A stretch of DNA of 64,000 bases from Acidimicrobiales bacterium (lineage in GTDB: Bacteria > Actinomycetota > Acidimicrobiia > Acidimicrobiales > Bog-793): the NCBI GenBank assembly GCA_050010115.1, contig JBEKLQ010000002.1:46741-110740 (forward strand), in the 5' to 3' direction. The notes under the pieces are model-generated. The model had not been told where the DNA came from. It made no database searches and saw nothing but the letters and a program-made list of their open reading frames with translations. Every line of letters begins with the position of its first letter. Positions within the stretch are counted from its first letter, which is position 1. Shown one piece after another: positions 3,026 through 22,856 of this stretch. The position numbers and the translations under genes are program-made.

Positions 3026-3041
3026 CGGTACCCTCCTCGGA

Positions 3042-6466: not shown

Positions 6467-6494
6467 CGACCCTCCCCCCAACTCCGACATATTT

Positions 6495-6511
6495 CTCGTT
6501 ACCCTAGCGAG
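6495..6511. promoter_or_regulatory. 17-bp imperfect palindrome CTCGTTACCCTAGCGAG (candidate Rrf2 operator, site A)
   Basis: Arms CTCG.TA / TA.CGAG. It matches 14 of 17 positions of the palindrome at 22230-22246. It overlaps the predicted -10 of the alpha-subunit promoter. Confidence 0.5.
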
Positions 6512-6954: not shown

Positions 6955-6999
6955 CGTCGAATCTCAGTAGGATTTGCTCGCCGTGATTACTATGTCTAA

Positions 7000-7644
7000 A
7001 TGAAGCTCGTGTCGAGCTCTGCTTCTGCTCCTCCAGGACACCTCGCCCTCTACCGACCGCAGCAGACCTTGCTCACGATCGACGAGCGCCGGGAGATCGT
7101 GGAAGTCTTCTTCCTCTCGCACCCTGGATCCGGGCGCCACGGCCTTGGGCTCGGCCGGGCGGTCGCGGACTTCGTCGAGTGGGAGGCGTCGAGTGGGCGG
7201 CTCGACGAGGCAAGCGGCTCGCCGTGGTGGCGCGCCGTGAACGAGTCGTTCGTGCTCGACCTTCGGGCAGCGCTCGCCGCCTCCGATCCCGCCGGGGTAC
7301 GCCCGGAGGCGTCGGCGGCATGGGCCGCCTACACGACAGCCACCCACGACCTGCAACAGGCCCACTGGACCGCGCACCAGGTGTCGTTGACGAGCGCGGT
7401 GGAAGCCGCCGCGCCCCTCCTCGAGCGCGAACCGGTGGAGGAGCGGGCGTTCGCCGGCATCGTGCTCGCCCTCGTCGCCCGAGCGGCTGCGGAGAACTCG
7501 CCGACGGACACGACCGACCTCGCCCGGTCCACTCGCCGCCTCTACCCGCCCTACTACCCGATCTCGCCGCCACAGCTCCAACAGCTCACGTCGAGGCTGG
7601 GCCGGGCAGGGGTCAACGCCGCCGGTCACGACGGCACCAGGTAG
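7000..7644 (+). CDS. Hypothetical protein
   Basis: ATG start, high GC3, non-degenerate composition (214 aa). I recognised no motif. It converges on and overlaps the next gene by 19 nt. Confidence 0.5.
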   Translation: MKLVSSSASAPPGHLALYRPQQTLLTIDERREIVEVFFLSHPGSGRHGLGLGRAVADFVEWEASSGRLDEASGSPWWRAVNESFVLDLRAALAASDPAGVRPEASAAWAAYTTATHDLQQAHWTAHQVSLTSAVEAAAPLLEREPVEERAFAGIVLALVARAAAENSPTDTTDLARSTRRLYPPYYPISPPQLQQLTSRLGRAGVNAAGHDGTR

Positions 7645-8783
7645 ATCATCCCGTTCGGGTCCGACGAGGCGACCACGCCCGTCGCGAGGCGCCCGTCTGC
7701 GAGCCAGCGGAGGGGCATGTCCGCGCCGACACACAGCGACGGGCCGGCGACAGTCACCATCGCCGACTCGACGAGTTCCCACAGCGTGGAGAGCGGTGTC
7801 CCCGTCCGGGGATCGGCCGGCACCACGTGCGCGTTGGTGACCGGGATGCCCACGGACTCGTCGATGTACCAGCTGGGGTGCGATGCGAAGATTGGACCCG
7901 TCTCCGGGAGGCCGAAGACGGTCAGCGCAGGACACTCGAGCGTCCTTCCCACGCGTCGCCGGTGCTCGGAGTCGAACGGTCCGCCGACCGTCAGCACCGA
8001 TGCGCCCAAGTTTCCACGAAGTGCCTTCACTTCGCGCTTTGCCTCGTGCGTCCACGCCAGCGCGTCTGCGAGATCCGCGTACAACCAGGACGCTGACTCT
8101 CGCCGTGCGGATTCGAGCGAGCCGGGACCGGGCTCGGTCACGACCAGCGAGAGCCCGGCAAGGAGTGGCACAACGACGCCGTAGATCCCCTGCCAGGTCG
8201 AGAGCGGGAGGGCGGTGACGAAGGCACCTCCCCCGGCGGCCTGCAGCCCGAGGAAGGAACCAAGCGATATGCCGCCCGCGACGAGCGAGCGCTGGGAGAG
8301 CCACACCGTGCCGGTTGCTCCCGGTACTGCGACCGCAGCCCGGGTCAGCGCGCCGCCGCCGTTCAGTTGCTCGCCTCCGCCTCCGCCTCCGCCGTTGCCG
8401 GCCGCGTCGCTCGGCGCCGGCCGTTCAGCGCCGGCACCTCCGACCCGGACCGGCACCCCGGCAGCGAGACCCACGAGGAGCTCTACGGCCCCCTCCTCCG
8501 ATGTCGCCGCCCCGAGATCGACCCGGCCCCGCTCGCGGGCTGCGCCGGTCCGGGAGATCACCTCTGCCGACAGGGCACGCCAGGTCCAGCGCGACGCTCC
8601 GCAGACAAGCGCCACCGAGTCAGGAGTCCGCCTCGCCCACCGTGCGACCGTCAGCTCGTCGACGCGAAATGGCGGCACGCCGACGACACGGGGAACGCCC
8701 GCGGGCCAGTACCAAGACGGCGTGATCGCTATCGTCTTCGCCACGGGCTGGTACCCCCTTGGACGTCCGTCACAACAAGCCAC
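7626..8783 (-). CDS. Truncated or degenerate adenylate-forming (AMP-binding) domain protein
   Basis: Layout resembles the acyl-CoA ligase N-domain (…WTWRALSAEV…, …FGLPETGPIF…, …DGRLATGVVASSDPNGMIYLVPS*). The TSGTTG P-loop is replaced by VPGATGTVW, there is a G7 insertion, and the ORF ends where the C-terminal subdomain should begin. An alternative GTG start is at 8744. Confidence 0.55.
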   Translation of the reverse strand: MACCDGRPRGYQPVAKTIAITPSWYWPAGVPRVVGVPPFRVDELTVARWARRTPDSVALVCGASRWTWRALSAEVISRTGAARERGRVDLGAATSEEGAVELLVGLAAGVPVRVGGAGAERPAPSDAAGNGGGGGGGEQLNGGGALTRAAVAVPGATGTVWLSQRSLVAGGISLGSFLGLQAAGGGAFVTALPLSTWQGIYGVVVPLLAGLSLVVTEPGPGSLESARRESASWLYADLADALAWTHEAKREVKALRGNLGASVLTVGGPFDSEHRRRVGRTLECPALTVFGLPETGPIFASHPSWYIDESVGIPVTNAHVVPADPRTGTPLSTLWELVESAMVTVAGPSLCVGADMPLRWLADGRLATGVVASSDPNGMIYLVPS

Positions 8784-9261
8784 CTGACGGCAGCGACACA
8801 GTCAGCAACACCGCCACCAGCGCGACGGCGATGTCGGCTCTCAGCAGCACGTCCATCCGCCGGATCGCACGGCGCGTCCGTTGGCGGGCGGCCGCCAGCT
8901 CCGCGCCGGAGAGACTCGCGTCGTGACGCAGGTGCAACGCCGGGTGGGCGAGCCACGCCATCGTCATGACACCGAGGGCGAGCAAGGCCCAGCAAGCGGC
9001 ACAAGCCCAGGCAGTGCGACCGTAGGCGGACGAGAGCGTGAAGCGTGACCGGGGTAGCACCAGAGCCGACGCCCCACCGGCCACAGCCAACGACGCGAGC
9101 GCGATCCACCGGTACCGCCGCCCCATTCTCTGGCACACGACGTTCACTTGCCCGGGAGGGAGGTAGCGCTGCACGGGACGCCAAACGAGCTCCATCGCCA
9201 CACTGCCCCCGAGGTAGAGAGCCCAGGCCAGCATGAAGGCGAAGCCGAGGACGACGCGCAT
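8770..9261 (-). CDS. 4-TM membrane protein, paralog B (unknown function)
   Basis: Internal ATG at 9261 (MRVVLGFAFMLAWALYLGGSVAMELVWRP…). It is a paralog of the upstream ORF, sharing the motif Y(L/V)GGSVAME(L/F)V(W/L)RP. A 1-nt TGATG junction links it to that ORF. Confidence 0.7.
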   Translation of the reverse strand: MRVVLGFAFMLAWALYLGGSVAMELVWRPVQRYLPPGQVNVVCQRMGRRYRWIALASLAVAGGASALVLPRSRFTLSSAYGRTAWACAACWALLALGVMTMAWLAHPALHLRHDASLSGAELAAARQRTRRAIRRMDVLLRADIAVALVAVLLTVSLPSGGLL

Positions 9262-9794
9262 CAAAGAAGCCCCCCGCCGTAAGCCAAGGACGCCCCGAGC
9301 AGCACGATGAACACCGCGATGACGAGATCGACCCTGGTAATGAGCGACACCCGGTTTGCCGCCGCCCGCATGACCTCGAGCCGCTCGGCCACGCCAGCTC
9401 CTCCTGCGGGGGCGCTCGCCCGTCGAGCGAGCCGCGGCCGCAGGACGAACGTGATGATGGCGCCGTTCACCACGAGCACGGCCCACAGGACGATCATGCC
9501 GAGGAGGGTTTGCCCGTAGCTGGTGGTGAGGAACTTCATGCCGCGCAAGCTGTCCTGATCCGACAAGGAGAAGAACAGGAGCAGCCCGCTGATCGGGAAC
9601 AGCGCCAGCGCTCCCCACACCAGGACCAGGAAGCGGTCGGCGGAGCGTTGGCCGATGACTTGCGCTTGGGAGGGGGGAACGTAGGACTGGGCCGGCCGGA
9701 GTACGAATTCCATGGCAACCGACCCTCCCACGTACACGGCGACGGCGAGGAGATGGAGGTACGAGGCGAAGATCTGCATAGCGCTCGAGGTCAT
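9261..9794 (-). CDS. 4-TM membrane protein, paralog A (unknown function)
   Basis: 177 aa with four hydrophobic helices. ATGA overlap (9791-9794) with the upstream gene. Confidence 0.75.
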   Translation of the reverse strand: MTSSAMQIFASYLHLLAVAVYVGGSVAMEFVLRPAQSYVPPSQAQVIGQRSADRFLVLVWGALALFPISGLLLFFSLSDQDSLRGMKFLTTSYGQTLLGMIVLWAVLVVNGAIITFVLRPRLARRASAPAGGAGVAERLEVMRAAANRVSLITRVDLVIAVFIVLLGASLAYGGGLL

Positions 9795-11254
9795 CGTGCG
9801 GCCTCCGTGGGATCGGGCTCTCCGGGATGCCAGACGGGGAAGTGGGCGTCGATCGCCGGCGTGATCGGATAGGCGCCGCCGTCAGTTGCGTAGAACTGTC
9901 GGTAGTAAGCGGGATCGGCGTGGTGGACCTGAGCCGAGAACTTGGCGCGGACCGGGCTCACGTACGCCGGGCAGCAGCCGTATCGATCGACGATGTACTC
10001 GACCGTGCGGATCGCCGCCGCCTCGGTGCGGTCGGAGATGTACGAACGCGGGTTCTCGAGGAGCTCCCGACGGGTCGCCTCATTGAAAGGGCCGGCAGCC
10101 CCGTCGCCCCGGCTGAGCGGGGCACCGGGCTGGTAGCGGAGCTCCTTCACATACCCGATCGCGTCGGCCGCCGTCGGGAACCGGGGGGACGGGACGACGA
10201 CCGGCTCCAGGATCCCAGGGAGGCCGAGGCAAGTGACGGTGCGGGAGGGGTTACGGGTGGGATCCCGCTCGAGGAAGGCAAAACCTAAGCCGCTCGCGAC
10301 CTCCGGGTAGGCGCCGAGGAGGAGGTCATCGGCGTACGAGCCGACCGGCCAAGCCCCGAGCCCGAGCGCCTCGGCAGCGAGGCGCACGTTCTGGACGACG
10401 CAGCCGACCTGTCCGGCGTGGAGGAGCACGGCGAGCTCGTCGAACACTGGGATCGGGAAGCCGGCTTCGAGAAACCCCGGCCCGATGAACTCTTCGCACC
10501 CCGCCGGCTTCTCCGCGTCCATCAGGTAGAAGCCTGACCACTCATACGACGTGAGCAACAGGTTGAACCACTCGAGTCCGACGTCTCCGACGGGGAGGAA
10601 CCACGTACTCCCCGGCCGGTTCAGGTTGTACTGCCCTGGACCGAGCGGGTTGACGTTGTGAGTCCCCTCGGGCGCGCTGAACCACCCGACGTCCGGACGG
10701 TGTTCGCTGAGCCGCGTCCGGCCGCGACGGTACCAGTCGAGGATCTTCCAGTAGTCGCCGGTGCCGGCGATCTCGACGGGCACCGGGCTCTCCCGTACCG
10801 GCCGGTAGAGCCAGGTACCGCCGTCGTTGATCAGGAAGAGGTCAACCGAGCGATCGTTGGAGGAAGACGGAATCGTCCGGCCCGCCGACGACAGCAAGCT
10901 GGATAGGGCGCCGTGGACGGGGATGTCCGCCAGCACGATGCCATTCGGGCCGAGAGCGGCCCAGGCCACGAGCGCCTCTTCCACCTCCGACAGCGGAACC
11001 GGCAGGGACTGGGAGGCGTATGCGAGCGGGCCCTCCGGCTGGACGACACTGCGCCCGCTCGACCATTCGAATGTCTCAGCCATCCCGGTCTCCGAGCGGT
11101 AGCCGAGCCCCATGCGCCGTGTCCGCAGCGTTGAGAGCACGCTGAACAGCGGCGGCGTGGCCTCGAAAGCTCGGGCGATCTGCGCCTGCTCGGCGGCCGT
11201 GATGCCCGCGACACCTCGTTGGTCGGCGGCGGGTGGCTGATACGTGTCGGTCAT
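9791..11254 (-). CDS. Large nitroreductase-superfamily-like protein (possibly SagB/ThcOx-like), partner of the orphan Mo subunit
   Basis: 487 aa. The segment …LLHAGQVGCVVQNVRLAAEALGLGAWPVGSYADDLL… resembles the conserved nitroreductase-fold helix-strand motif, and the N-terminus has …LRTRRMGLGY…. ATGA overlap with the alpha2 stop (11251-11254). The family assignment is tentative. Confidence 0.55.
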   Translation of the reverse strand: MTDTYQPPAADQRGVAGITAAEQAQIARAFEATPPLFSVLSTLRTRRMGLGYRSETGMAETFEWSSGRSVVQPEGPLAYASQSLPVPLSEVEEALVAWAALGPNGIVLADIPVHGALSSLLSSAGRTIPSSSNDRSVDLFLINDGGTWLYRPVRESPVPVEIAGTGDYWKILDWYRRGRTRLSEHRPDVGWFSAPEGTHNVNPLGPGQYNLNRPGSTWFLPVGDVGLEWFNLLLTSYEWSGFYLMDAEKPAGCEEFIGPGFLEAGFPIPVFDELAVLLHAGQVGCVVQNVRLAAEALGLGAWPVGSYADDLLLGAYPEVASGLGFAFLERDPTRNPSRTVTCLGLPGILEPVVVPSPRFPTAADAIGYVKELRYQPGAPLSRGDGAAGPFNEATRRELLENPRSYISDRTEAAAIRTVEYIVDRYGCCPAYVSPVRAKFSAQVHHADPAYYRQFYATDGGAYPITPAIDAHFPVWHPGEPDPTEAAR

Positions 11255-14034
11255 CTGCGCCTCCGCTCGACATCGACGAGGACGGCTCGATCACTCGGGA
11301 CGGGCTGCCAGCCGAAGGGCAGATACCGCAGGTGCCCGTACCGCCCGACGAGGTGCAGCCACTTGACGAGCCCTGGCTCGATTTCGTTCGACCCACGCCA
11401 TCCGGCGAACATGTGGGGTTCGAACCCGTTGTAGGAGATCACCTGGCCGGGCCTGACGCGTCCGGCCAGCCGCGCCATCGCCCGGAATTCGCCGTGATCG
11501 TTGAAGACGCGGATCTCGTCGCCGTCGGCGATCCCCCGCCGGCCGGCGTCGGCAAGGTTGAGGATCACGAGGGGCTGGCCTCGGTGCGTCTCGAGCAGGG
11601 CCCGATTACCCATGCTCACTGAATGGATCGTCCAGCGCGAGTGGCCACTCGTGAATACGAGGGGGTAGTCACCGCCCGCTTTCGGCGGCTCCTTGTGCCG
11701 CGGAAGCGCCTCGTCCGCCTCGAGGAACCATGGGTGGTCGATGTAGAACTGGGCCCGGCGGGTCAGCGTAGGGAACGGCACGCCCCGCTCGGCGTGCCAC
11801 TGGTACGCCGTGAGCACCTTCGAGGGCGAGACGTCGGTCGCGACCGACAGACCCGGCGCGAACGCCCCGAGCCCGGTGCTGCGGACGGTACCGGTCGCCT
11901 TCAAGGTGTCCACGGTGGTACCGGGCGGGAGGGTGCCTGCCTCGACGGAGTCGCGCACCCACTCGTCGACGACCGCTTCCTCCTCGACGAACGCCCCTGC
12001 CGCCGTGTACGCATCCGCCAACCGGTCGAGCCGGCGGGTCTGGCGGCGGCCGTCCAGATACTCTGTCTGGCCCCGCTCGGCGGCGAGGCGCTCCACCCGC
12101 TCGCTGAGACGCCGGAAGATCTCCCACTCCGATTTGGACTCGCCTCTCGGCGGGACGGCGGCGTCGGAGAACCCGATGTGGAACGTGTGGGTTATGGCGT
12201 ACTGCAGGTTCGTGCGCTCGTACTGCATCACCGCGGGCAGCACGAGATCCGCATGGAGCGCGGTCGAGGACATTCGCGAGTCGATCACGATCACCTTGTC
12301 GAGCTTCGGCCACAGCTCGCGCAGCAGCGTGGAGCTGCCACCCCGGGTCCGGCGGATCGGGTTCGAACCGACAGCGAAGAACACCTGCGGCTCGACGGAG
12401 GACCCTGGCCGCGTCAGACCTCCCCACCAGCCGCGCTGCACGGCCTCGGTGAGGTACTCGTCGAAGGTGCGCCGCATCGTCGGCTCGGCCCACTCGGCCC
12501 GGTTCCACGCTTCCCGGTAGCCCCCGTGGTGGTAGTTGAAGAAGACCGGAGGAGTCGAGGTGCCACTCGCTACAGCCATCTGTAGGAGTTGGTTCCCCGC
12601 GATCTCGTCGGTGGCGTCCGGATCCCTATCCTTCACCGACGCGACGGCAGCCTCGATACCGTCGAGGAGCCTGGCCGTCTCTTCGATCCCTCCCTTGGAC
12701 TTCATGCCGAAGAGGAGGTAGCCGTCGAGTCCGGCGAGGGCGAGCCCTTGGATGCCGGTACCGGGACGGCCCCAGTTCCCCGAGAGCGCGAGGAGCAGGC
12801 ACATCGCCCGCTCCATCAGGTCGCCGTGGAAGTACTTCGGGGTATTGAAGCCTTCGAGGATCTTCGTCGGCCGGGATGCGACCAACCGGGCGACATGGCG
12901 GATCGTGTCTGGGGCGACGCCGCAGACCTCAGCCGCGCGTTCGGGCGTGTACTCCTCGAGCCTCCGGGCCAGGAGCTCGAAGACCGTCGTGACCTCGGCT
13001 TCGGAGCCGTCGACGAGCGTGACAGTCCAGGTACCGCGCAACTCCGGGCTCTGATCGATCGCCAGGCTGTCGCGGCGCGCCGGCACGAGCCCGGCACCGT
13101 CCAAGTAGTGGTAGAAGCGGTCCTCACGCTCGTCGGCGACGACGTCGTTCCCGCGGAGGAACCGCCCGGTGGCCGTCTGCACGAGCAGCGGTAGGTCGGT
13201 CTGGCTCACGACAAAACGCTCGTCCATCAGTCCCTCGTCGACGATCGTCTTGCACATCGCAAGGGCGAGAGCGGCGTCAGTGCCCGGGCGGACCGGGACG
13301 TACAGGTCCGAGAACACCGCCGAGGCGTTGACGTCCGGGGCGATCGCGACCACAGTGGCGCCGTGGTAGCGGGCCTCGCTCACGTAGTGGAAGTAAGGGA
13401 TCGACGTATAGGCGGGGTTCGAGTGCCAGAGCAGGAGCAGGCCGGCGTGGAATGTGTCGTCGACAGTGCTGGCGCACGAGAACTTTCCGAACGTGATGTG
13501 CTGACCGGTGGGCAGATCGTTGACGAGGCCGTTGGCATCGAGTGTGACGGCACCGATCAAGCCCGCGAACCGCATGAACGCTGCCTGCGTCATGAGGCCG
13601 CCCTCGACGGTCTCCTCGAAGATGATCGACTCCGGCCCTTCGAAGTCGATCGCGTCGAGCAACGCCTCAGCCACCTCCGTGAGCGCCTCGTCCCACGAGA
13701 TGATCTCCCAGGACCCGCTGCCCCGCTCGCCGACTCGCCGGAGCGGCTGCAGAACGCGGTCCTCGCCGGTCAGCTGGAGTGAGTAGGCGCTGCCCTTCTG
13801 GCACCCGAGCGGGTTCAGGTCGGGCACGCCCTGCTCGATGATGTCGAACACCCCACCCTGCTCCTCGAACAGCACGTCGCCGTCGCGGACGAAGACACGG
13901 TACGGGCAGGCAGCAAGACAGTTCAGGCAGTGCGTCCCCCAGGCCACGCGGTCCCAGGTCCAGCGTCGGCGGTAGCCGTCCTCTGTCGACGTCGCTTTGG
14001 GTGTCGCAGTCGCAGTCGCTGTCCCTATACCCAT
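11251..14034 (-). CDS. Molybdopterin (Mo-bisPGD) oxidoreductase alpha-subunit paralog (alpha2), orphan, no Tat signal
   Basis: Clear paralog of 3647-6466, sharing RWTWDRVAWGTHC, YRVFVRDG, RRVGERGSG, ISWDEA, RRAQFYIDHPW and PGQVISYNG. FS0 motif HCLNCLAAC…NPLGC. No adjacent beta, gamma or delta genes. Confidence 0.9.
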   Translation of the reverse strand: MGIGTATATATPKATSTEDGYRRRWTWDRVAWGTHCLNCLAACPYRVFVRDGDVLFEEQGGVFDIIEQGVPDLNPLGCQKGSAYSLQLTGEDRVLQPLRRVGERGSGSWEIISWDEALTEVAEALLDAIDFEGPESIIFEETVEGGLMTQAAFMRFAGLIGAVTLDANGLVNDLPTGQHITFGKFSCASTVDDTFHAGLLLLWHSNPAYTSIPYFHYVSEARYHGATVVAIAPDVNASAVFSDLYVPVRPGTDAALALAMCKTIVDEGLMDERFVVSQTDLPLLVQTATGRFLRGNDVVADEREDRFYHYLDGAGLVPARRDSLAIDQSPELRGTWTVTLVDGSEAEVTTVFELLARRLEEYTPERAAEVCGVAPDTIRHVARLVASRPTKILEGFNTPKYFHGDLMERAMCLLLALSGNWGRPGTGIQGLALAGLDGYLLFGMKSKGGIEETARLLDGIEAAVASVKDRDPDATDEIAGNQLLQMAVASGTSTPPVFFNYHHGGYREAWNRAEWAEPTMRRTFDEYLTEAVQRGWWGGLTRPGSSVEPQVFFAVGSNPIRRTRGGSSTLLRELWPKLDKVIVIDSRMSSTALHADLVLPAVMQYERTNLQYAITHTFHIGFSDAAVPPRGESKSEWEIFRRLSERVERLAAERGQTEYLDGRRQTRRLDRLADAYTAAGAFVEEEAVVDEWVRDSVEAGTLPPGTTVDTLKATGTVRSTGLGAFAPGLSVATDVSPSKVLTAYQWHAERGVPFPTLTRRAQFYIDHPWFLEADEALPRHKEPPKAGGDYPLVFTSGHSRWTIHSVSMGNRALLETHRGQPLVILNLADAGRRGIADGDEIRVFNDHGEFRAMARLAGRVRPGQVISYNGFEPHMFAGWRGSNEIEPGLVKWLHLVGRYGHLRYLPFGWQPVPSDRAVLVDVERRRR

Positions 14035-14068
14035 GGCTCCCCCTGCTGGGCGACGTGCCAGGTAAAAA

Positions 14069-14097
14069 ATCCTAGTTATTCATGCGAGAGTTGTAAA
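14069..14097 (-). promoter_or_regulatory. Candidate internal promoter in an AT-rich island: -35 TTTACA (14092-14097), 17-nt spacer, -10 TAGGAT (14069-14074)
   Basis: Minus strand reads TTTACA-actctcgcatgaataac-TAGGAT, about 35 nt upstream of the alpha2 ATG (14034). It overlaps the last codons and stop (14072-14074) of the upstream ORF. It is a conspicuously AT-rich patch in GC-rich DNA. Confidence 0.45.
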
Positions 14098-16257: not shown

Positions 16258-16714
16258 TGGCTGTCTCGCACCCGAGCACGTACGGGGGGGCACCTCGTGG
16301 CCAGGTCGTCTCGATGGTTCGGTATGCCTCGAGGAGCGCCTTCACGTGGTCGGCCTGGCGCATGAGGAAGCGCATGTCTCCCCGGACCCGGATGGTCCCC
16401 TTGAGGGCGGCGTCGATCGGGTCCAACAGCCCGGCGGCGACCTCGTCAAAAGCGGCCGCCGGTCCGAGGAACCTGAAGCTCAGCTCCTGCGTCTCGTCCG
16501 GCTCGCCTTCGCGGTACCACGAGCACTGACCGTCGTCGATCTGGACGAGGAAGTGGCGCTCCCCGCCCGCTTCCACGTACGGGGACACGGCGTCGCCGAC
16601 GATGTCGACCGCGATCAGTATGGAGCCCTTCGGCACTTCTCGAAGGTTCGCCACCCTGACGTTGATCGCGGCGCGCACCGCTTCGAACCACTCCTCGGTG
16701 TAGACGTCGGCCAT
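16250..16714 (-). CDS. SCP2 sterol-binding-domain protein
   Basis: 154 aa: MADVYTEEWFEAVRAAIN…ILIAVDIVGD…HFLVQIDDGQ…FRFLGPAAAFDEVAAGLLDPIDAALKGTIRVRGDMRFLM. This is a typical SCP2 pattern. The TGATG junction at 16714 links it to the upstream gene. Confidence 0.8.
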   Translation of the reverse strand: MADVYTEEWFEAVRAAINVRVANLREVPKGSILIAVDIVGDAVSPYVEAGGERHFLVQIDDGQCSWYREGEPDETQELSFRFLGPAAAFDEVAAGLLDPIDAALKGTIRVRGDMRFLMRQADHVKALLEAYRTIETTWPRGAPPYVLGCETANA

Positions 16715-18336
16715 CAGTACGACCTCCCCTCCGCGACCGGGCTCGGCAAGCCGAGGTCTTCGGCGATGACCTTGTAGGCGTTGTAACCACAGGCCGAGTG
16801 CACGCCTCCACCCGGGTGGGACGAGGGCCCGCAGAAGTACAGGCCTCCGATCTCCGCCCGATAGCTCGAAGCCTCCGGGAACGGACGGTTCACCCCGAGC
16901 TGATCGGGGGCGAACTCTCCATTGGAGAAGTCGCCCTCCCGCATCAGGTTCTTGCGTTCGATCTGATCCGGTGTGTACAGCTTGTGAGCCATGACGTTGG
17001 CGGGGGTCATGTTCGGAGCGGACTCGCGCCAGGTAGCGAGGAACCTGTCGTTGTAACTCGCGCGAACTTCTGCCCACTCGTCGGCGGAGAGCGCGCTGGC
17101 AGGCGGAAGGAAGTACCACCCGGTCGCCGCGTGGTAGTTCGGCGGCGCCTGGGCCGCGTCCCAGATCGAGTTGACCCACGTTGCCGCTTTCGGCTCGGGG
17201 AGCTTGCCGCTGTAGGCGTCGCGAATGTAGGCGAGCATGTCCGCCGCGCTGTCGTAGCCCACGAGCGTGTAGAAACACCGGTCGATGTCGGGGTTCCAGG
17301 CGGCCGACTTGTAGGCTGGCGCCTCGTGGATGCAGAACATCGGGGTGCCGAGCACGTGGCTCGGGCCATAGCGGAACGCCTTCGCCCTCCGGACCCAACG
17401 GTCGCTCAGGTGTTCCTCACCCACCAACTCGAGCAGCGTCTGGCGGATGTCGGCATTGGACGCGACGAGCCGCTCTGCCCGGATTTCCCGGCCACCTCGC
17501 ACCCGCACCCCGACGGCGCGCTCATCCTCGACGAGGATTCGTTCCACCGCCGTGTTCTCGATGAGGTCGACCCCTTCGCGGTAGCAGACCTGTGTCATCG
17601 CCTTGGCGAGCGTGTGGGTCCCTCCCCGGCACAGCTTCCAGTTGCCGAGCGTCCACATCACATAGGTGAGGAAGCCGATCCCCAGCCCTTCCGTATCGAT
17701 CGGTAAGCCCCACTCGACGGAGCAACGGTAGAGCAGCGCCCGGACCTCCGGCGTCTCGAACAGCTCGTCGATGACGACCTTGGGGGACTTGACGGCGAAA
17801 TGGGCTCCGACACCGAGGTCACCCCAACCGAGCTCGAGGGTGGCTCCTTCGCTGTTGCGGTCGATCGGCTTCGGTGGGTTGTAGAGATCCGTCGCGACAA
17901 GTTCCTCCACCTCCACCGCCCGGCGCTTCAACTCGACGAACGTATCCGCGTCCACCTTCGAGTACGCGGCGATGCTCTCGCGTGTCCGCTCGAGGAGGTC
18001 CGGTCGGTACACGATGATCGGCGGCCGCCCGTCCGCGAACGCGATCCCGGCCTGCGCTTCGGGCATGACCGTCCGCAGTCCGACCTCCTCCAGACCGAAG
18101 TCCCGGATCATCGGCATGATGTCGAAGAACTCCATGTACTGGGCGTGCATGTTGTGCCGGAAGCCTGGCAGCACGGGCTCCTCGGTGTTCACGCCACCGC
18201 CTTCTTCGTGACGACGTTCGATGACCACTGTGGAGAGGCCCGCTCGCTGTAGGTACGCGGCAAGGCAGAGCCCGTTGTGCCCGGCCCCGATGACGACGGC
18301 GTCGTAGGTCGTCGTGATCGAAGTGGTGTCGCTCAT
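16714..18336 (-). CDS. CrtI/phytoene-desaturase-family FAD-dependent oxidoreductase, paralog 2
   Basis: YDAVVIGAGHNGLCLAAYLQRAGLSTVVIERRHEEGGG. C-terminal …IGGLYFCGPSSHPGGG…. ATG at 18336 preceded by GAAGGGA. Confidence 0.85.
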   Translation of the reverse strand: MSDTTSITTTYDAVVIGAGHNGLCLAAYLQRAGLSTVVIERRHEEGGGVNTEEPVLPGFRHNMHAQYMEFFDIMPMIRDFGLEEVGLRTVMPEAQAGIAFADGRPPIIVYRPDLLERTRESIAAYSKVDADTFVELKRRAVEVEELVATDLYNPPKPIDRNSEGATLELGWGDLGVGAHFAVKSPKVVIDELFETPEVRALLYRCSVEWGLPIDTEGLGIGFLTYVMWTLGNWKLCRGGTHTLAKAMTQVCYREGVDLIENTAVERILVEDERAVGVRVRGGREIRAERLVASNADIRQTLLELVGEEHLSDRWVRRAKAFRYGPSHVLGTPMFCIHEAPAYKSAAWNPDIDRCFYTLVGYDSAADMLAYIRDAYSGKLPEPKAATWVNSIWDAAQAPPNYHAATGWYFLPPASALSADEWAEVRASYNDRFLATWRESAPNMTPANVMAHKLYTPDQIERKNLMREGDFSNGEFAPDQLGVNRPFPEASSYRAEIGGLYFCGPSSHPGGGVHSACGYNAYKVIAEDLGLPSPVAEGRSY

Positions 18337-18347
18337 CGCACGTCCCT

Positions 18348-18752
18348 TCAACCGGCCCGGAGACCGCCGCCGAAGCCGCCGGCGGCTCGTGACCCAACGG
18401 CGGGCTTGCCGTCGCTGGCGGAACCGAACTTCTCGGCCGTTTCGAGCTTCTCGGCCCTCTCTCGGCGCCCTGTCTTCTCGGCCTTGTCGACCTTCCCATC
18501 CCCCAGCGTCTCGGACGGATGGGCCTTGCGGTGGAAGATCCAGCGGGCGCCGAGCCCGAGCGTGTGGCGGTTGACGCCGACACGGAGCATCCCGGGGATG
18601 TCACCTGGCGCGATGCGGATCGAGAAGTCCCAGGTCACCGGTTCATGAATCGTGCCCTCGATGACCACTTCGTTGCCATCCCGCTTGATCTCGTACTCGC
18701 GGAAGTCCATGACGAGCTCTCTGCGGCCAAGGCCGCGTGAACGAAGTTTCAT
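18348..18752 (-). CDS. Small hypothetical protein (compact N-domain plus K/E-rich and G-rich tail)
   Basis: ATG at 18752 overlaps the stop of the upstream flavoprotein (ATGA, 18749-18752). Sequence: …MDFREYEIKRDGNEVVIEGTIHEPVTWDFSIRIAPGDIPG…KVDKAEKTGRRERAEKLETAEKF…GGFGGG. No family recognised. Confidence 0.55.
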   Translation of the reverse strand: MKLRSRGLGRRELVMDFREYEIKRDGNEVVIEGTIHEPVTWDFSIRIAPGDIPGMLRVGVNRHTLGLGARWIFHRKAHPSETLGDGKVDKAEKTGRRERAEKLETAEKFGSASDGKPAVGSRAAGGFGGGLRAG

Positions 18753-20407
18753 GCGAGGTAGGCCTCCTGGTATCGCTGAACGAATCGGGGCATCTGCCAC
18801 CATCGGTTGGCCGCGAGGTCGTCCACGACCGAGCCGGCGGCGATGTAGCCGGGCCCGCCGATCACGAGCCCGCCCGGGTACGAGGAGGCACCGCAAAGAT
18901 AGAGGCCTTCGATCGGCGCCCGTCCGCCGATGCAGCTGTCATGGGGCCGGAACACGCCCATCTGGAGCGGGTCGTAGTGCCCGTGCTTGATCGACCCGCG
19001 AACCATGTTGGGCAAGCGGGTCTCGATGTCGAGAGGGCTCTCTGCGTTCATCATCACGACGTTCTCCGCCGTGAGGTTCGGGGCGTACTCGCCCCACCGC
19101 TCGAGCAGCGACGCCGCCAGGTCCTGGCGACGGGCTTCCCAGCCACCGGTGACGTCATAGGGGGCGTGAATCTGCAGGAACCCCACGTGATGGCCGGGCA
19201 CTCGCGGCAGCGTCGGGTCGTACCTCGTCTCGATGGTGGCGTGACCTCCGGGCGCCTGGTCGAGATTTCCTGCCGCGACCGCCCTCCATTGGTCGAGCAG
19301 CTCGTCCGTCGAATCGAAACCCAGCACCGTCATGAACGCATCGTCCACCCATGGATCGTCGGAGCGGTACGAGGGAGCCTGCTTGCAGGCGACCGTGAGG
19401 GTGAAGAACGACCAGCGGTCCCACTCCCACCGCTCCGCTGTCCGGCGCAACTCGGCAGGGACCCACTCCTCTTCGATCAGCTCGCCGAAGGTCTGCGGAG
19501 GCGGGAGGCTCGAGAGCACGGCCTTCGCCCGGATGACATGACCGTCGAACAGTTCGACGCCGGTCACGTGGCCCTCCGTCACCAGGATCTGTGTCACCTC
19601 GGCGTTGTCGATCACCACTCCGCCCGCCCGGTGGATCTCTCTCGACAACGCGCCGGCGAGCTTGTGCGACCCGCCGTAGCAGACGGCCTTGTTCATGGCA
19701 CGGTCGACCAGCATCGGCACCATGAACCCCAGCCCGCTGTCTTCCGGGTCGAGCCCCCACATGCAGGCCACGTAGAGGAGGAGCATCTTCAGGCGGTCGT
19801 CCTCGAAGAGCTCGTCGATGATCTCGACGGGCGACATCTCGGTCAGCCGCAACGCCTCTTTCCCCACCTCCGTGCGCTCGAGAGCCTCGATCATGTCGAT
19901 CGGGTGCAAGGGCGGCAGGTACGTCCCCGGCGCGACCACCTCCTCGACGATCCGTCGCCACGTCCGCATCACACGTCCGAAGGCGCGGGCGTCGGTTGGG
20001 GAGCGCTTCGCGATCGAGTCCTTCGTGTCCTCGATCTGGTGGCACAGGAGGAGGCTCGTCCCGTCCCGGAAGACCGCCGCGGTCTGCGCGTTCGGCTTGA
20101 CGAACGTGAGTCCGTGCTGGGAAAGGTCGAAGTCCCGGAGCACGGGCATGTAGTCGGTCATCATGTGGTAGACGGCGTGGGTGTTCGTATAGAAACCCGG
20201 GAAGAGCGTCTCCTCGGTCGCGAGGCCTCCCCCGATCTCGTGGCGCCGTTCGACCAGCACGGTTCGCAGGCCGGCCCGCGCGAGGTAGGCGGCTGCGATG
20301 AGCCCGTTCGGGCCGCCGCCGACGACGCACACGTCGGCGTCGTACTCGTGGGGGAACTCCTCGAGGATCTTCTCAGTTGGCTCGATGCCGTAGCTCCGGC
20401 GGGTCAT
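18749..20407 (-). CDS. CrtI/phytoene-desaturase-family FAD-dependent oxidoreductase, paralog 3
   Basis: Internal ATG at 20407 (MTRRSYGIEPTEK…). ADVCVVGGGPNGLIAAAYLARAGLRTVLVERRHEIGGG. C-terminal …IEGLYLCGASSYPGG…. ATGA overlap with paralog 4 (20404-20407). Confidence 0.85.
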   Translation of the reverse strand: MTRRSYGIEPTEKILEEFPHEYDADVCVVGGGPNGLIAAAYLARAGLRTVLVERRHEIGGGLATEETLFPGFYTNTHAVYHMMTDYMPVLRDFDLSQHGLTFVKPNAQTAAVFRDGTSLLLCHQIEDTKDSIAKRSPTDARAFGRVMRTWRRIVEEVVAPGTYLPPLHPIDMIEALERTEVGKEALRLTEMSPVEIIDELFEDDRLKMLLLYVACMWGLDPEDSGLGFMVPMLVDRAMNKAVCYGGSHKLAGALSREIHRAGGVVIDNAEVTQILVTEGHVTGVELFDGHVIRAKAVLSSLPPPQTFGELIEEEWVPAELRRTAERWEWDRWSFFTLTVACKQAPSYRSDDPWVDDAFMTVLGFDSTDELLDQWRAVAAGNLDQAPGGHATIETRYDPTLPRVPGHHVGFLQIHAPYDVTGGWEARRQDLAASLLERWGEYAPNLTAENVVMMNAESPLDIETRLPNMVRGSIKHGHYDPLQMGVFRPHDSCIGGRAPIEGLYLCGASSYPGGLVIGGPGYIAAGSVVDDLAANRWWQMPRFVQRYQEAYLA

Positions 20408-22152
20408 GACACCCCTCCGGCGACCGACGCCAGCTTCGCGTCCGTGCCCGACTCGGACCGCGAGCCCGGCTTGGCAGCGTCGGAGATGTACCACTCCGAC
20501 GGGTACCACCAGCTCGCCGGTTCCACGATGCCGTCGTCGATGAGGATGTGCATGAGGTTGTACGGGACCGCCATCAAGCAGAGCCCACCCGGATGCGACG
20601 TCTGGTTGCACAGGTAGAGACCGTCGATGGGCGTCCGGTAACGCGACAGCTCGGGCAGCGGCCGGCTCGAGAACCACTGGTCCTCCGACTGCCGGATCGC
20701 ATACCAGTTCCCTCCGCTCATGCCCGCGTTCCGGAACTCCGAGTCATACGGCGTGTTCACGAAGACATCGACGATGTTGTCCGAACCCATGTTCGGGGCC
20801 ATTCGTTCGAGGAGCGCGAGCGCAGCCTTCGTGATCTCGTCCTTGTGGCGGTTGATGCCCTCCGGCCCGGTCACGTCGTACTGAGGGGGCGGCACCTCCA
20901 GATACACCGGTGAGAGCAGGTGGTAACCGTCAGGGGTGCGGGTCTCGTCGTAGGGGTCGTGGGTGACGATCATCATCGTGAGGTGCTCGGGCGAGAGTTC
21001 CGGGCTCCGCCGGAGCGAGTAGGCGTCACGCGTCTGGGCGTGGAAGAACTCCATCGAGTCAGCTGGCGCCATCACACACGAGGGGTACACGTCCTCGGGG
21101 AAGGCGTCGGGCCGGCCGTGGTACTTCGGCAGCTCACGGCAGAGCACGTGCATGACGAACAGGCTGCCGCCCTTGAGCGAGATGTCCTTGACGCGCTGGG
21201 TGAAGCCGACGTCGAGGTGCTGCCGGCCGATGAGGTTCAGGAACGTCGTCTTCACGTCCACGCCCGAGACAACGGCCTTGTCGGCCCAGATCGTCTTCTC
21301 GGGGAAGGCCGCCTCGTCCGAGAGGCGGACGCCCACGGCCCGGCCGTTCTGCACGATGATCTCGCCCACCGGTGCATTCGCGAGGATGCGCGCACCGTGT
21401 GCCAGCGCGCAGCGGATGATGGAGTGTGCGTAGGCGTGCATGCCGCCGCGGGGCGACCCCGACGCGTAACCGACCAGCATCCCGCCGCCCATGGACGGCA
21501 GGAGCATCCCGTCCCAGTCGGGATGCGCTCCGCAGTACCAGGCAGCGAAGGCTGCGGCCACCCGCGCCGGCTCCCACGGCACGAACTCGTCGAGGAAGTC
21601 GGTGTAGCTCATATCGAGCAGTCGCGGGCTGTAGAGCCCGGGCAGGTGCTTTCGGAAGACGTTCCACCACGGCAGGTCCCCGGCCTCGACCTCGAGCTCG
21701 GGTGGGTGCGGCGGCGTCCAGAACAGGGCTCTCAGCAGCTCACGCAGCGATGGCTCGTCGAGGGCCTCCATCGGGCTGAAGGCGCCTTCGCTGGTCCCGG
21801 CGTACCGTCGGCGCGACTCCTCGCCAATGTCAGGCCGCCAGCGGCTCCCCATGTTGGCGGCGACCCCGTCGAGAGTGACGATGCCCGACAGCGACTGGTA
21901 GTAGACCATCCGGAACCCGTACTTCCACAGCTCGAGCTGATCGAAGCCCGGAGCCGCCCCGCCGTACAGGTAGGTCGCGTGCGGGTCGATCCGGAAGCCC
22001 GGCCTCGGCTCGGTGTTCTCCTGGCCACCGCCGCACTCGGGTCTCGCTTCCAGGACGCACACGCTGAGTCCTGACTTCGCGAGGTAGGCGGCAAGTGTGC
22101 TGCCGTTGTGCCCACCTCCGACGATGACGACGTCGAAGCGCGCATCCTGCAT
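20404..22152 (-). CDS. CrtI/phytoene-desaturase-family FAD-dependent oxidoreductase, paralog 4
   Basis: ATG at 22152 (MQDARFDVVIVGGGHNGSTLAAYLAKSGLSVCVLEARPECGGG) preceded by a GGGGGGA SD. C-terminal …IDGLYLCNQTSHPGG…. Confidence 0.85.
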   Translation of the reverse strand: MQDARFDVVIVGGGHNGSTLAAYLAKSGLSVCVLEARPECGGGQENTEPRPGFRIDPHATYLYGGAAPGFDQLELWKYGFRMVYYQSLSGIVTLDGVAANMGSRWRPDIGEESRRRYAGTSEGAFSPMEALDEPSLRELLRALFWTPPHPPELEVEAGDLPWWNVFRKHLPGLYSPRLLDMSYTDFLDEFVPWEPARVAAAFAAWYCGAHPDWDGMLLPSMGGGMLVGYASGSPRGGMHAYAHSIIRCALAHGARILANAPVGEIIVQNGRAVGVRLSDEAAFPEKTIWADKAVVSGVDVKTTFLNLIGRQHLDVGFTQRVKDISLKGGSLFVMHVLCRELPKYHGRPDAFPEDVYPSCVMAPADSMEFFHAQTRDAYSLRRSPELSPEHLTMMIVTHDPYDETRTPDGYHLLSPVYLEVPPPQYDVTGPEGINRHKDEITKAALALLERMAPNMGSDNIVDVFVNTPYDSEFRNAGMSGGNWYAIRQSEDQWFSSRPLPELSRYRTPIDGLYLCNQTSHPGGLCLMAVPYNLMHILIDDGIVEPASWWYPSEWYISDAAKPGSRSESGTDAKLASVAGGVS

Positions 22153-22229
22153 CGCATCCCCCCAGTCCACGTCGAGCAAGGCCGGCTGGCACGCTTAGGT
22201 TGCCGTCTGCCTCGCGCTTCCGTTATTTC

Positions 22230-22246
22230 CTCGCAAGCCTAGCGAG
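22230..22246. promoter_or_regulatory. 17-bp palindrome CTCGCAAGCCTAGCGAG (candidate Rrf2 operator, site B)
   Basis: 14 of 17 positions are self-complementary. It matches site A (6495-6511) at 14 of 17 positions. It lies in the 212-bp gap between the Rrf2 gene and flavoprotein paralog 4, and contains a minus-strand -10-like TAGGCT (22236-22241). Confidence 0.5.
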
Positions 22247-22364
22247 CTTTTATCGCGGAGGGAAGCCCTGTGGCTCGGCTTCGAAATGGCCCGGAGGATC
22301 CTGGCCGGGCAGGTCGGCCGCAGTGCGGGCGGATGACCGGCGTCCAAGCGGTCGCCTGCTCGGC

Positions 22365-22856
22365 TCAGCTGGCCGTGGGGGCGCGGCCGGCGCGGCGGGC
22401 GGCGGCGGCGGCTTCGCGGCGGGCGGCGAGCTTGGCGATCTCCCGCTCGCGACGCAACGTGTCGGAGAGGCTCGTATGGTCGAGTGCGTTGATGGCCGCC
22501 GAGCGGCCGTGGCTCCACGCAGCGTGGAGGGCGCACTCAGGACGGTGATCGTTGCACCGACGGGAGTCGAGGAGGCAGTGGGAGATCTCCAGGCGGCCCT
22601 CCAGGGACTCGATGATCTCCAGCATGGAGATGTCCTCGGGGTTCCGCGCCAAGGTGCAGCCCCCGTTCCTACCCGGCAAGCAGAGCAGCAAGCCCGAGCG
22701 CGAGAGCAGGTTCATGATCGTCGGCACGTTCCCGGACGAGATCTCGCAAGCCCGAGCCAGGTCCGCGGCGGTCACCCGCTCGCCTCTCGAAAGAGAGGCC
22801 ATGTACAGCATGAGGCGGATGCCGTACTCGCTTCTCTTCGTGAGGGACAGATGCAT
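22365..22856 (-). CDS. Rrf2-family transcriptional regulator (paralog 2, three-Cys Fe-S-type)
   Basis: MHLSLTKRSEYGIRLMLYMA…AADLARACEISSGNVPTIMNLLSRSGLL…GRNGGCTLAR. Cys region C-x6-C-x6-C-x2-H (HCLLDSRRCNDHRPECALH). Start taken at the ATG at 22856; the track start at 22868 is an alternative. Confidence 0.9.
   Translation of the reverse strand: MHLSLTKRSEYGIRLMLYMASLSRGERVTAADLARACEISSGNVPTIMNLLSRSGLLLCLPGRNGGCTLARNPEDISMLEIIESLEGRLEISHCLLDSRRCNDHRPECALHAAWSHGRSAAINALDHTSLSDTLRREREIAKLAARREAAAAARRAGRAPTAS

Follow-up and report, generated by a model that had tools for sequence, protein, structure and literature searches.

We analysed a 64,000-nucleotide stretch of DNA from an Acidimicrobiales bacterium (GenBank assembly GCA_050010115.1, contig JBEKLQ010000002.1, positions 46,741 to 110,740 of the forward strand), hereafter the window, in which a co-directional train of genes at 7626-22856 encodes flavoproteins, small proteins and alpha1, the catalytic subunit of a molybdenum (Mo) enzyme. 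The reading that we favour, and hold to be somewhat probable, is that the train and its neighbours on either side form a catabolic cluster (about 1278-27987) in which unactivated C-H bonds of a hydrophobic substrate are oxidised with water in place of O2, and that alpha1 probably borrows the beta, gamma and delta subunits of a neighbouring operon. Of the candidate substrates, side chains of the isoprenoid or sterol type are the most likely, as the kind of flavoenzyme and the alpha-gamma-beta gene order indicate, and a plain alkyl chain is less so. A divergent operon for an acyl-CoA dehydrogenase (ACAD), a thiolase and a coenzyme A (CoA) ligase fits catabolism. The genes are listed in Table 1.

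The original prediction described the train as 13 minus-strand open reading frames (ORFs) headed by an Rrf2-family regulator, and most of this description held. All 13 ORFs lie where it placed them, with G+C at third codon positions above 0.8 (the window as a whole is ~68% G+C) and with homologues or a family match for each, and the heading gene is an Rrf2 regulator by its Pfam score. The proposed ATGA overlaps (20404-20407, 18749-18752, 11251-11254 and 9791-9794), the 1-nucleotide TGATG overlaps at 16714 and 9261 and an 8-base overlap at 16250-16257 can be read directly in the sequence, and the only gap longer than 40 bp is that at 22153-22364. A further overlap at 8770-8783 is probably a 25-bp gap instead, because the last gene, AMPf, most likely begins at GTG 8744 rather than at 8783: gene calls made independently on metagenome contigs of identical sequence (JGI 3300039309 and Logan SRR13621567) give a product of 372 amino acids (aa), and the nearly invariant N-terminus of the aligned family members, (M)PKTIAITPSWYWP, begins at this GTG.

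To what extent the train is a single unit can be viewed through its relatives. When one genome per GTDB species was scanned for the nitroreductase-fold protein NTRL, encoded directly after alpha1, 78 loci emerged, each in a metagenome-assembled genome (MAG) and none in a cultured isolate, and all window proteins were mapped by tblastn onto related loci to count neighbours. The loci (cited below by their L numbers) come from Acidimicrobiia/Microthrixaceae, Thermoleophilia, Dehalococcoidia, Anaerolineaceae, Thermoflexaceae, Tepidiformaceae, Alphaproteobacteria and Gammaproteobacteria. An alpha gene lies directly upstream of NTRL in all 64 of 64 loci, and the genes for the two membrane proteins TM1 and TM2 and for AMPf lie downstream in 57 of 59 (TM2 being present in 58 of 59). 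The train is not one conserved unit: only its last five genes make up a widely conserved cassette, and flavoprotein genes lie within 10 kb of this cassette in 8 of the 78 loci, with their sub-blocks permuted relative to the Mo module. Thus, we conclude that the train is a composite of two separable modules, module 1 (14072-22152) and module 2 (7626-14034), which are repeatedly but not obligately linked. Rearranged linkage of flavoprotein and Mo genes is found in L014, L023, L069, L081 and the Binatia locus L090. L023 reads alpha2-gamma-beta-delta-alpha1-NTRL-TM1-TM2-AMPf and then FlvA-FlvB-sm134-FlvC, L014 reads FlvA-FlvB-alpha1...AMPf-alpha2-gamma-beta-delta-ACAD, and L081 retains the FlvC-SCP2-FlvD-p202 block.

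The Mo subunit had been called an orphan, which is true only within 7626-22856: directly downstream of the train, at 1278-6954, another Rrf2 gene heads a complete operon of the order alpha-gamma-beta-delta, whose catalytic subunit we call alpha2. This operon accompanies the cassette in most relatives, and its arrangement behind Rrf2b recurs in L011, L012, L013, L017 and L066. A block of beta and delta is found directly upstream of the cassette in 29 of 45 loci (27 with gamma, 2 without), and in 29 of 36 there is a beta subunit no more than 10 kb away. Three alpha- and gammaproteobacterial loci (L053, L054 and L085) have no gamma (EB_dh) gene and read alpha2-beta-delta-alpha1-NTRL-TM1-TM2-AMPf.

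That alpha1 is a Mo-bisPGD (bis-pyranopterin guanine dinucleotide) subunit of the ethylbenzene dehydrogenase (EBDH) type, as predicted, is borne out by its alignment with EbdA (PDB 2ivf_A) over residues 8-924 at 700 bits (E 4e-209), compared with 441 bits for PcrA and 207 for NarG. Asp223, the Mo ligand, and Lys450 are present in 59/59 alpha1 and 41/41 alpha2 sequences and throughout a third clade, alpha3, and the FS0 motif is kept, as H-x3-C-x3-C...C in alpha1 and as H-x3-C-x4-C in alpha2. Scores for alpha1 fall below the NCBIfam cut-offs both for DMSO_red_II_alp (825 against 984.75) and for the EbdA equivalog (717 against 2000), so we regard it as a relative and not an equivalog. When the 121 alphas of the loci were clustered together with the two of the window and EbdA, an alpha1 clade (n=59), each member of which is followed by NTRL, separated from an alpha2 clade (n=41), followed by gamma or beta, and from the alpha3 clade (n=15), which belongs to a third, divergently oriented operon in 15 mostly Chloroflexota loci; EbdA falls outside all three. 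There is no beta, gamma or delta gene belonging to alpha1 itself, and alpha2 has all three partners. We therefore suggest, from this synteny and from the finding that S25DH alpha1-3 of Sterolibacterium were produced in active form with beta3/gamma3 (PMC6016249), that alpha1 probably works with the beta, gamma and delta subunits of the alpha2 operon.

With ORFs extended to the upstream stop, no leader of the twin-arginine translocation (Tat) type was found in any of 125 alphas (60 alpha1-like, 35 alpha2-like and 30 other), by a rule that was checked against one twin-arginine N-terminus only, that of the Binatia alpha in L090, which it flagged. That alpha belongs to a single run, sm134-Flv-Flv-Mo alpha, in a Binatia MAG. 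The gamma subunit has no signal peptide and none of the proteins of the alpha2 operon has an export signal. EBDH, S25DH and S26DH carry Tat leaders and are assigned to the periplasm (PMC7411048, PMC6016249). Going by their N-termini, the Mo enzymes described here are, unlike these, probably cytoplasmic, and their electron-acceptor logic must then differ from that of the characterised enzymes.

An AlphaFold2 (AF2) model of NTRL (predicted local distance difference test score, pLDDT, 79; predicted template modelling score, pTM, 0.85) matched flavin mononucleotide (FMN) nitroreductases in the PDB by Foldseek at E 5e-6 and probability 1.0 (3hoi, 8cqs and 3hj9), with ThcOx, BmdC, AlbA and McbC among further matches. 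The structural match thus upholds the proposed nitroreductase-fold partner, although its Pfam score for PF00881 stays below the cut-off (19.4 against 23.5 bits), as does that for TIGR03605 (18.8 against 78.4), and a profile search of PDB sequences gave nothing below E 0.05. Homologues of NTRL number well over 100, are 59-90% identical to it, are all metagenomic and are either unnamed or called 'hypothetical'; one of them, 88% identical, comes from a source named as Acidimicrobiales, in line with the lineage of the window. They share a single invariant Cys and invariant R-T-R-R, T-x-P-x-x-S and G-x-G-x-W stretches, which by eye we take to be FMN-binding elements of SagB-type enzymes. TM1 and TM2 are the twin four-helix membrane proteins that had been predicted, with four hydrophobic helices each and recognisable as paralogues by their identity. 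TM2 scores only 10 bits against Pfam CopD; the two have a GG..ME..RP motif in common and one invariant His, which is His14 of TM1.

AMPf was correctly described as a truncated adenylate-forming domain: in all 21 aligned members it ends at the hinge and has no C-terminal subdomain. Profile matches in the PDB are to the adenylation (A) domains of nonribosomal peptide synthetases (NRPS; to 1e-16) and to MenE, and an N-terminal KTIAITPSWYWP stretch is nearly invariant across members. The P-loop (A3) region, by comparison, is variable and gapped, the A7 Asp of the TGD motif is replaced and A8-A10 are absent. Since it has lost the P-loop and the A7 Asp and ends at the hinge, AMPf is unlikely to adenylate a substrate; judged from these motifs, it is probably a non-catalytic scaffold that cannot bind ATP in the canonical way. 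In PDB entry 7ly5 the bacillamide NRPS BmdB was crystallised with the nitroreductase-fold oxidase BmdC, and the chains of this entry are split across our match lists, BmdB being found with AMPf and BmdC with NTRL. By analogy, 7ly5 offers a structural precedent for a putative NTRL-AMPf complex, not proof of one.

The four flavoproteins of module 1, FlvA to FlvD, had been described as of the CrtI/CtmAB type, and Pfam and NCBIfam searches confirm that they are CrtI-like. All carry G-F-x-x-[ND]-x-H-A, in which His-Ala is invariant and one or two other positions depart from the published consensus. In CtmAB of Castellaniella defragrans and in the steroid desaturase Δ24-SD, the N-terminal consensus is G-F-[LR]-x-[NS]-[TL]-H-A, and its His holds covalent FMN (PMC11061730). 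The H-A pair is retained in relatives from Dehalococcoidia, Thermodesulfobacteriota and Binatia, and CrtI (4dgk) has GFTFDAGP at this position, with no His. NCBIfam scores are far below the cut-offs for the carotenoid enzymes: 47-90 bits against 238 for crtI_fam, 51-69 against 580 for CrtD and 139-227 against 1000 for the CrtO ketolase, which is the best match. Consequently we rejected a carotenoid desaturase reading, and narrow the earlier description to the CtmAB type: by motif, cut-offs and the published descriptions of CtmAB and Δ24-SD, we place all four proteins in the CtmAB/Δ24-SD family. Consistent with the prediction that carotenoid genes are absent, the ORFs scanned across the window included no crtB, crtE or cyclase.

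FlvA and FlvB are 26.5% identical, and FlvB, FlvC and FlvD are 36-38% identical to one another. The two subunits of Δ24-SD are 26% identical (PMC11061730) and those of CtmAB 27% (PMC4109377), so that FlvA-FlvB fits a two-gene pairing at ~26-27% identity; no such pair is formed by FlvC and FlvD, each of which resembles the beta subunit. A pair of the FlvA-FlvB type is retained in L088, L089 and L090. The best 120 matches to FlvA are all metagenomic, with no Sterolibacterium or Castellaniella reference (WP_067170564, WP_067170561, CDM25289 or CDM25290) among them.

Each flavoprotein unit is accompanied by a small protein. The one small protein that had been listed as being of unknown kind, sm134, represents a real conserved family with at least 197 homologues, all annotated as hypothetical and none with a Pfam match. 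Residues 20-74 of its AF2 model (pLDDT 85-94) form a core of three strands and two helices, for which a Foldseek search of the PDB found no match (best E 0.33). It is found beside flavoprotein pairs in L023, L089 and L090, which represent three phyla, and the FlvA-FlvB-sm134-type order, which recurs in L023 and in the Dehalococcoidia locus L089, mirrors ctmABCD. Two SCP2 proteins had also been proposed. The claim stands for the protein of 154 aa, which matches SCP2 directly (23.6 bits against a cut-off of 21.3) and has a 56% identical orthologue in L081. Its counterpart of 202 aa, p202, has no match of its own and can be called SCP2-like only through its relatives, 6 of 46 of which match SCP2. 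For p202 itself, a search of Pfam up to E 10 gave no SCP2 match, a three-sequence profile was likewise negative against the PDB, and hhalign with the 154-aa protein was not significant; the top PDB profile matches of its family, TT1886 and SCP2, reach only E 0.1. Additionally, p202 has an in-frame (DRAGGA)x3 insertion (DRAGGA-DRAGGA-DRAGG; 14405-14458, minus strand) that is missing from its L070 and L081 homologues, and its hydrophobic C-terminal helix is likewise specific to the window and not found in these two. The p202 relatives P0380 and P0395 are fused to a COX15/CtaA haem-A-synthase domain. Separately, genes for ferrochelatase, a HemN-like protein, CtaA and MobB lie just upstream of the cassette in the Microthrixaceae locus L086 (2378-5756).

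Family memberships, cofactor-binding residues, the absence of Tat-type leaders and the conserved neighbourhoods were established directly; the steps of the mechanism are what we infer. Under the reading that we favour, the SCP2-like proteins would hand a lipid substrate to flavoenzyme units composed of FlvA-FlvB-sm134, FlvC-SCP2 and FlvD-p202, in which enzymes with putatively covalent FMN are predicted to desaturate or hydroxylate allylic positions, the carbons next to a C=C bond. The alpha2-gamma-beta enzyme, and alpha1 with borrowed beta, gamma and delta, would hydroxylate tertiary or allylic carbons with water, giving two cytoplasmic hydroxylases of differing regiospecificity comparable to the pairing of a tertiary (S25DH) with an allylic (S26DH) enzyme. 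Electrons would exit via the Fe-S chain and haem b to the membrane, possibly via TM1/TM2 and NTRL, the latter being a putative FMN dehydrogenase of the nitroreductase fold, probably docked on AMPf, which is predicted to be catalytically dead. TM1 and TM2 might pass electrons on from the cytoplasmic enzyme into the membrane, or else contribute a further dehydrogenation. The oxidised chain end would become a carboxylate, be activated by the CoA ligase and enter beta-oxidation through the divergent ACAD and thiolase genes, with Rrf2a and Rrf2b gating expression. An ATP-dependent route from S25DH through a kinase and a lyase to S26DH was considered and rejected: the window has no phosphotransferase of the kinase type, and AMPf cannot be expected to bind ATP canonically.

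Several observations weigh against the cluster being a pathway of this kind. Every characterised hydroxylase of the clade has a Tat leader and the alphas described here do not; neither window alpha reaches the NCBIfam cut-off for EbdA or that for the type II DMSO reductase alpha subunit; and His192 of EbdA is not conserved in the alpha1, alpha2 or alpha3 clade. The window contains neither a 25-hydroxysteroid-kinase-type phosphotransferase nor sterol ring-degradation genes, and no ferredoxin or electron-transfer flavoprotein (ETF) to serve the flavoenzymes. Flavoproteins lie within 10 kb of the cassette in only eight loci, all from Actinomycetota, so that the two modules are separable, and all 78 loci, together with every homologue whose source is named, come from MAGs or metagenomes. 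Finally, EBDH-like genes of Chloroflexota have been labelled putative alkane hydroxylase ahyA in metagenome surveys (PMC13170169).

Another way to view the cassette is as an enzyme in its own right. It is possible, though distinctly less likely than borrowing, that alpha1 does without a borrowed beta or gamma and forms its own complex with NTRL (contributing FMN), AMPf (as scaffold) and TM1/TM2 (as anchor), which would be a Mo-bisPGD hydroxylase connected to the membrane by way of a flavoprotein. Alternatively, desaturase and hydroxylase would be fused in one enzyme, with NTRL introducing the C=C bond before alpha1 hydroxylates the allylic carbon. The alpha1 clade is distinct and each of its members is followed by NTRL; in the window the two genes share an ATGA overlap at their junction; the five genes stay together across phyla even with no beta within 10 kb (L016, L036, L071 and L075) or, as in the three proteobacterial loci above, no gamma; and the SagB/ThcOx/BmdC/AlbA-type relatives of NTRL are dehydrogenases. 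alpha1 also retains FS0, and therefore its electrons must leave toward a partner. However, beta and delta stand directly upstream of the cassette in the 29 of 45 loci noted above, often within one co-directional run of nine genes, alpha1 is similar enough to alpha2 over its full length (49%) that the beta interface has likely been kept, and the single invariant Cys of NTRL offers no obvious Fe-S relay, which counts against such a complex. Tentatively, the cassette could represent an undescribed architecture for a Mo enzyme, a proposal to which we give less than even credence: a cytoplasmic EBDH-type alpha with a SagB-like FMN dehydrogenase on a dead adenylation scaffold and a CopD-like membrane pair. 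If so, it may provide a new electron exit in place of the periplasmic cytochrome c acceptor, or a coupled desaturase-hydroxylase that needs neither ATP nor O2 to activate saturated chain ends, and transfer may have spread it among at least Actinomycetota, Chloroflexota, Alphaproteobacteria and Gammaproteobacteria in sludge, groundwater, permafrost and the deep sea.

It is unlikely that the Mo enzymes are instead AhyA-type hydroxylases acting anaerobically on n-alkanes at the C2-methylene, in a locus that degrades plain alkanes or alkyl chains. Record titles place the loci in groundwater, cold-seep, hadal and other marine MAGs, and genes for a thiolase, a CoA ligase, ACAD and a short-chain dehydrogenase/reductase (SDR) are nearby, as an alkane pathway would have it, but the function of AhyA is itself biochemically unproven and the window has no gene of the acetone-carboxylase type for the proposed ketone carboxylation. 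Ethylbenzene dehydrogenase genes are ordered ebdABC. The alpha-gamma-beta order of the window matches the gamma3-beta3 order implied for S25DH (PMC6016249) and not ebdABC, and flavoenzymes of the CtmAB/Δ24-SD type act on allylic positions of isoprenoids (PMC11061730), although Chloroflexota MAGs with several EBDH-like genes have been annotated as carrying putative ahyA (PMC13170169). We consider it improbable that the enzymes are cytoplasmic, membrane-anchored reductases of an oxyanion or of an S- or N-oxide, similar to NarGHJI, with TM1/TM2 in the role of NarI and the flavoproteins as unrelated neighbours. Such reductases would account for the missing Tat leader and the NarJ-like delta, the gamma-less order alpha-beta-delta...TM1-TM2 recalls narGHJI, and the reductases of chlorate, perchlorate and selenate are among the type II DMSO reductases. 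Yet alpha1 is closer to EbdA than to PcrA or NarG by the bit scores above, EB_dh gamma is kept in most loci, linkage to ACAD, thiolase, CoA-ligase and CtmAB-type flavoprotein genes recurs, and TM1/TM2 have a single invariant His where di-haem NarI has four. The least probable of the explanations weighed is a biosynthetic one, in which the flavoproteins and Mo enzymes would modify an endogenous lipid such as a carotenoid, a quinone or a hopanoid-like compound. The best NCBIfam match of the flavoproteins is indeed CrtO and two genes of the methylerythritol phosphate (MEP) pathway, dxr and ispG, lie in the window; the CrtO scores, however, are far below the cut-off, there is no phytoene or squalene synthase or cyclase in the window, dxr and ispG belong to a housekeeping block more than 25 kb away, and the immediate neighbours are genes of the beta-oxidation type.

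Table 1. Genes of the cluster and its immediate surroundings, in window coordinates
Gene	Description	Position	Strand	Basis
delta	NarJ-type assembly chaperone	1278..1931	-	Pfam Nitrate_red_del
beta	Four-cluster ferredoxin subunit	1943..3025	-	Pfam Fer4_11; Cys motifs in translation
gamma	EB_dh haem-b-type subunit	3042..3650	-	Pfam EB_dh, E 1.2e-10
alpha2	Second EBDH-type catalytic subunit	3647..6466	-	49% identical to alpha1 over full length; no Tat leader
Rrf2b	Second Rrf2 regulator, heads alpha2 operon	6499..6954	-	Pfam Rrf2, 99.7 bits vs 30
	Conserved hypothetical protein, 214 aa	7000..7644	+	No Pfam match; converges on AMPf
AMPf	Adenylation-domain core (N-terminal ANL domain)	7626..8744	-	Pfam AMP-binding PF00501, 42.5 bits vs 29.9
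TM2	Four-helix membrane protein, paralogue of TM1	8770..9261	-	34% identical to TM1
TM1	CopD-like four-helix membrane protein	9261..9794	-	Pfam CopD PF05425, 37.2 bits vs 32.1
NTRL	Nitroreductase-fold protein (SagB/ThcOx/BmdC-like), 487 aa, probable FMN protein	9791..11254	-	AF2 and Foldseek
alpha1	EBDH-type Mo-bisPGD catalytic subunit	11251..14034	-	Pfam Molybdopterin and Molydop_binding
p202	Divergent SCP2-like protein, 202 aa	14072..14680	-	Transitive evidence
FlvD	Beta-like CtmAB-family flavoprotein	14662..16257	-	Motif GFLHNVHA
SCP2	SCP2-domain protein, 154 aa, probable lipid carrier	16250..16714	-	Pfam SCP2 PF02036, E 6.9e-5
FlvC	Beta-like CtmAB-family flavoprotein	16714..18336	-	Motif GFRHNMHA
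sm134	Conserved small protein, fold unmatched; candidate third subunit of FlvAB enzyme	18348..18752	-	
FlvB	Beta-like subunit	18749..20407	-	Motif GFYTNTHA
FlvA	Alpha-like subunit, CtmAB/Δ24-SD-type	20404..22152	-	Motif GFRIDPHA
Rrf2a	Rrf2-family regulator heading train	22365..22856	-	Pfam Rrf2 PF02082, 103.2 bits vs 30
ACAD	Acyl-CoA dehydrogenase, first gene divergent from Rrf2a	23044..24234	+	Family match
NTR	Classical nitroreductase, 262 aa	24247..25035	+	Pfam Nitroreductase, E 4e-18
	Thiolase-like protein, Thiolase_C_1 domain	25047..26279	+	Family match
	Complete acyl-CoA synthetase	26299..27987	+	AMP-binding and C-terminal domain

The two Rrf2 regulators are 47% identical, and the translation of Rrf2a contains C-x6-C-x6-C-x2-H, a candidate Fe-S site. 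A shared operator was sought in three places, the gap at 22153-22364, the DNA between Rrf2a and ACAD and the DNA ahead of Rrf2b; the search gave only unrelated short palindromes and no common 14-mer with up to two mismatches. Promoter and terminator counts in a scan of 6400-23200 were at chance level. The sole sigma-70-like hexamer pair in that interval, TTTACA-17-TAGGAT (14069-14097, minus strand), lies in an unusually A+T-rich stretch at the p202/alpha1 boundary, and is suggestive but not significant; such pairs are also no more frequent than chance across the genome. An Rfam scan for a molybdenum-cofactor (Moco) or other riboswitch returned only tRNA: a tRNA gene at 159-240 (plus strand, 55.5 bits) overlaps the 5' part of a long ORF (150-1199), and the metallophosphoesterase gene of this ORF therefore starts farther downstream.

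The divergent pair of ACAD and NTR recurs beside the cassette, with 60-74% identity across phyla, in L029, L032, L033, L037, L044, L046, L050, L066, L076, L078, L080 and L083. In Chloroflexota loci the pair adjoins the third, divergent EBDH-like operon, the alpha of which is ~38% identical. At the other end of the train, the convergent gene at 7000-7644 overlaps the 3' end of AMPf and was outside the gene list of the original prediction; its homologues, 39-50% identical, adjoin AMPf on either strand in ~20 actinobacterial loci. Elsewhere the window carries housekeeping genes (ispG, rseP, dxr, cdsA, frr, pyrH, rpsB and a sigma factor), together with those for two aminotransferases, an aldehyde dehydrogenase, a thiamine pyrophosphate (TPP)-dependent enzyme (40952-42766, minus strand) and a protein of the 3beta-hydroxysteroid dehydrogenase (3beta-HSD)/epimerase type (35348-36493, minus strand). 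A TPP enzyme is also found near the cassette in the gammaproteobacterial locus L085 (1-2288) and in the Acidimicrobiia locus L087 (14824-16521), and the 3beta-HSD/epimerase-type protein accompanies it in the gammaproteobacterial locus as in the window. It is conceivable that the TPP enzyme is a lyase of the 2-hydroxyacyl-CoA type for branched chains.

The significance of the cassette lies largely in where it is found. To our knowledge, water-dependent hydroxylation of unactivated C-H bonds has been described in very few cultured denitrifiers (Aromatoleum, Sterolibacterium and Castellaniella), with periplasmic Mo enzymes in all of them. Among lineages that are abundant but uncultured, at least 78 species-level MAGs carry the cassette, including those of Microthrixaceae and other Acidimicrobiia, of Dehalococcoidia and Anaerolineae and of marine Gamma- and Alphaproteobacteria. 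Its four conserved partners of alpha1 received neither a curated family assignment nor a helpful annotation in our searches. If our favoured reading is true, then sterols, isoprenoids or alkanes would be broken down without O2 far more commonly than culture work suggests, and the metagenome labels 'ahyA', 'CrtO-type ketolase' and 'phytoene dehydrogenase-like' would need to be re-read. The cassette would also provide a defined set of partners for co-expression, and could help in making enzymes for selective hydroxylation; S25DH is already used for the production of 25-hydroxyvitamin D3.

The combination of a flavoenzyme with a Mo hydroxylase had been thought undescribed, but a study of how stigmasterol is degraded anaerobically has reported it (Zhan et al. 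2024, PMC11061730). Sterolibacterium denitrificans pairs a CtmAB-type Δ24-desaturase, Δ24-SD, whose subunits are 34% and 38% identical to CtmA and CtmB, with the Mo-dependent C26 hydroxylase S26DH2, which it feeds, and the closest uncharacterised relatives of Δ24-SD include Acidimicrobiales proteins (PMC11061730). Both systems bring together a two-subunit flavoenzyme of the CtmAB family and an EBDH-type Mo hydroxylase, there at the end of an isoprenoid chain and with no O2. The window differs from S. denitrificans in having four flavoprotein genes, not two, with a small SCP2-like or unknown protein in each unit, in Mo enzymes that have no Tat leaders and in the conserved set of NTRL, TM1, TM2 and AMPf. 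The ctmABCDEFG locus of C. defragrans (PMC4109377), whose CtmAB hydroxylates an allylic methyl group with no O2 (PMC4109377), likewise has adjacent A and B genes of ~27% identity followed by the small hypothetical genes ctmC and ctmD, and both subunits have the consensus His motif (PMC11061730). It has no linked Mo enzyme, however, and the window in turn has no counterpart of the CtmE ferredoxin or the CtmF reductase.

Among Mo enzymes, S25DH1-4 and S26DH1-3 (PMC6016249, PMC7411048) share with the alpha2 operon a type II DMSO-reductase alpha, an Fe-S beta, a haem b gamma and a delta chaperone. Their genomes also encode several paralogous alphas, some of which rely on a beta and gamma encoded elsewhere, and pairs of these enzymes act in sequence on one side chain (PMC7411048); these papers mention no partner with a nitroreductase fold, of the CopD-like kind or with an adenylation core (PMC6016249, PMC7411048). 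EbdABC (2ivf) is the best match of solved structure, and its FS0 His/Cys motif, Asp223 and Lys450 are conserved in alpha1, whereas the Tat leader is missing here, His192 is replaced and the order is alpha-gamma-beta-delta. BmdB-BmdC (7ly5, 7ly7) joins an NRPS to a nitroreductase-fold FMN oxidase, a pairing of the AMPf and NTRL kind, but the similarity is generic (there are many A domains and many nitroreductases), AMPf has lost its ATP motifs and nothing around it suggests peptide synthesis. We found no description of the alpha1-NTRL-TM1-TM2-AMPf cassette in the literature. Flavin- and Mo-dependent oxidation of C-H bonds in isoprenoid chains that is independent of O2 is already known (PMC11061730, PMC7411048, PMC4109377), and what is new here is the absence of Tat leaders, the five-gene cassette with its three unannotated families, the sm134 family and the spread of this system across uncultured phyla.

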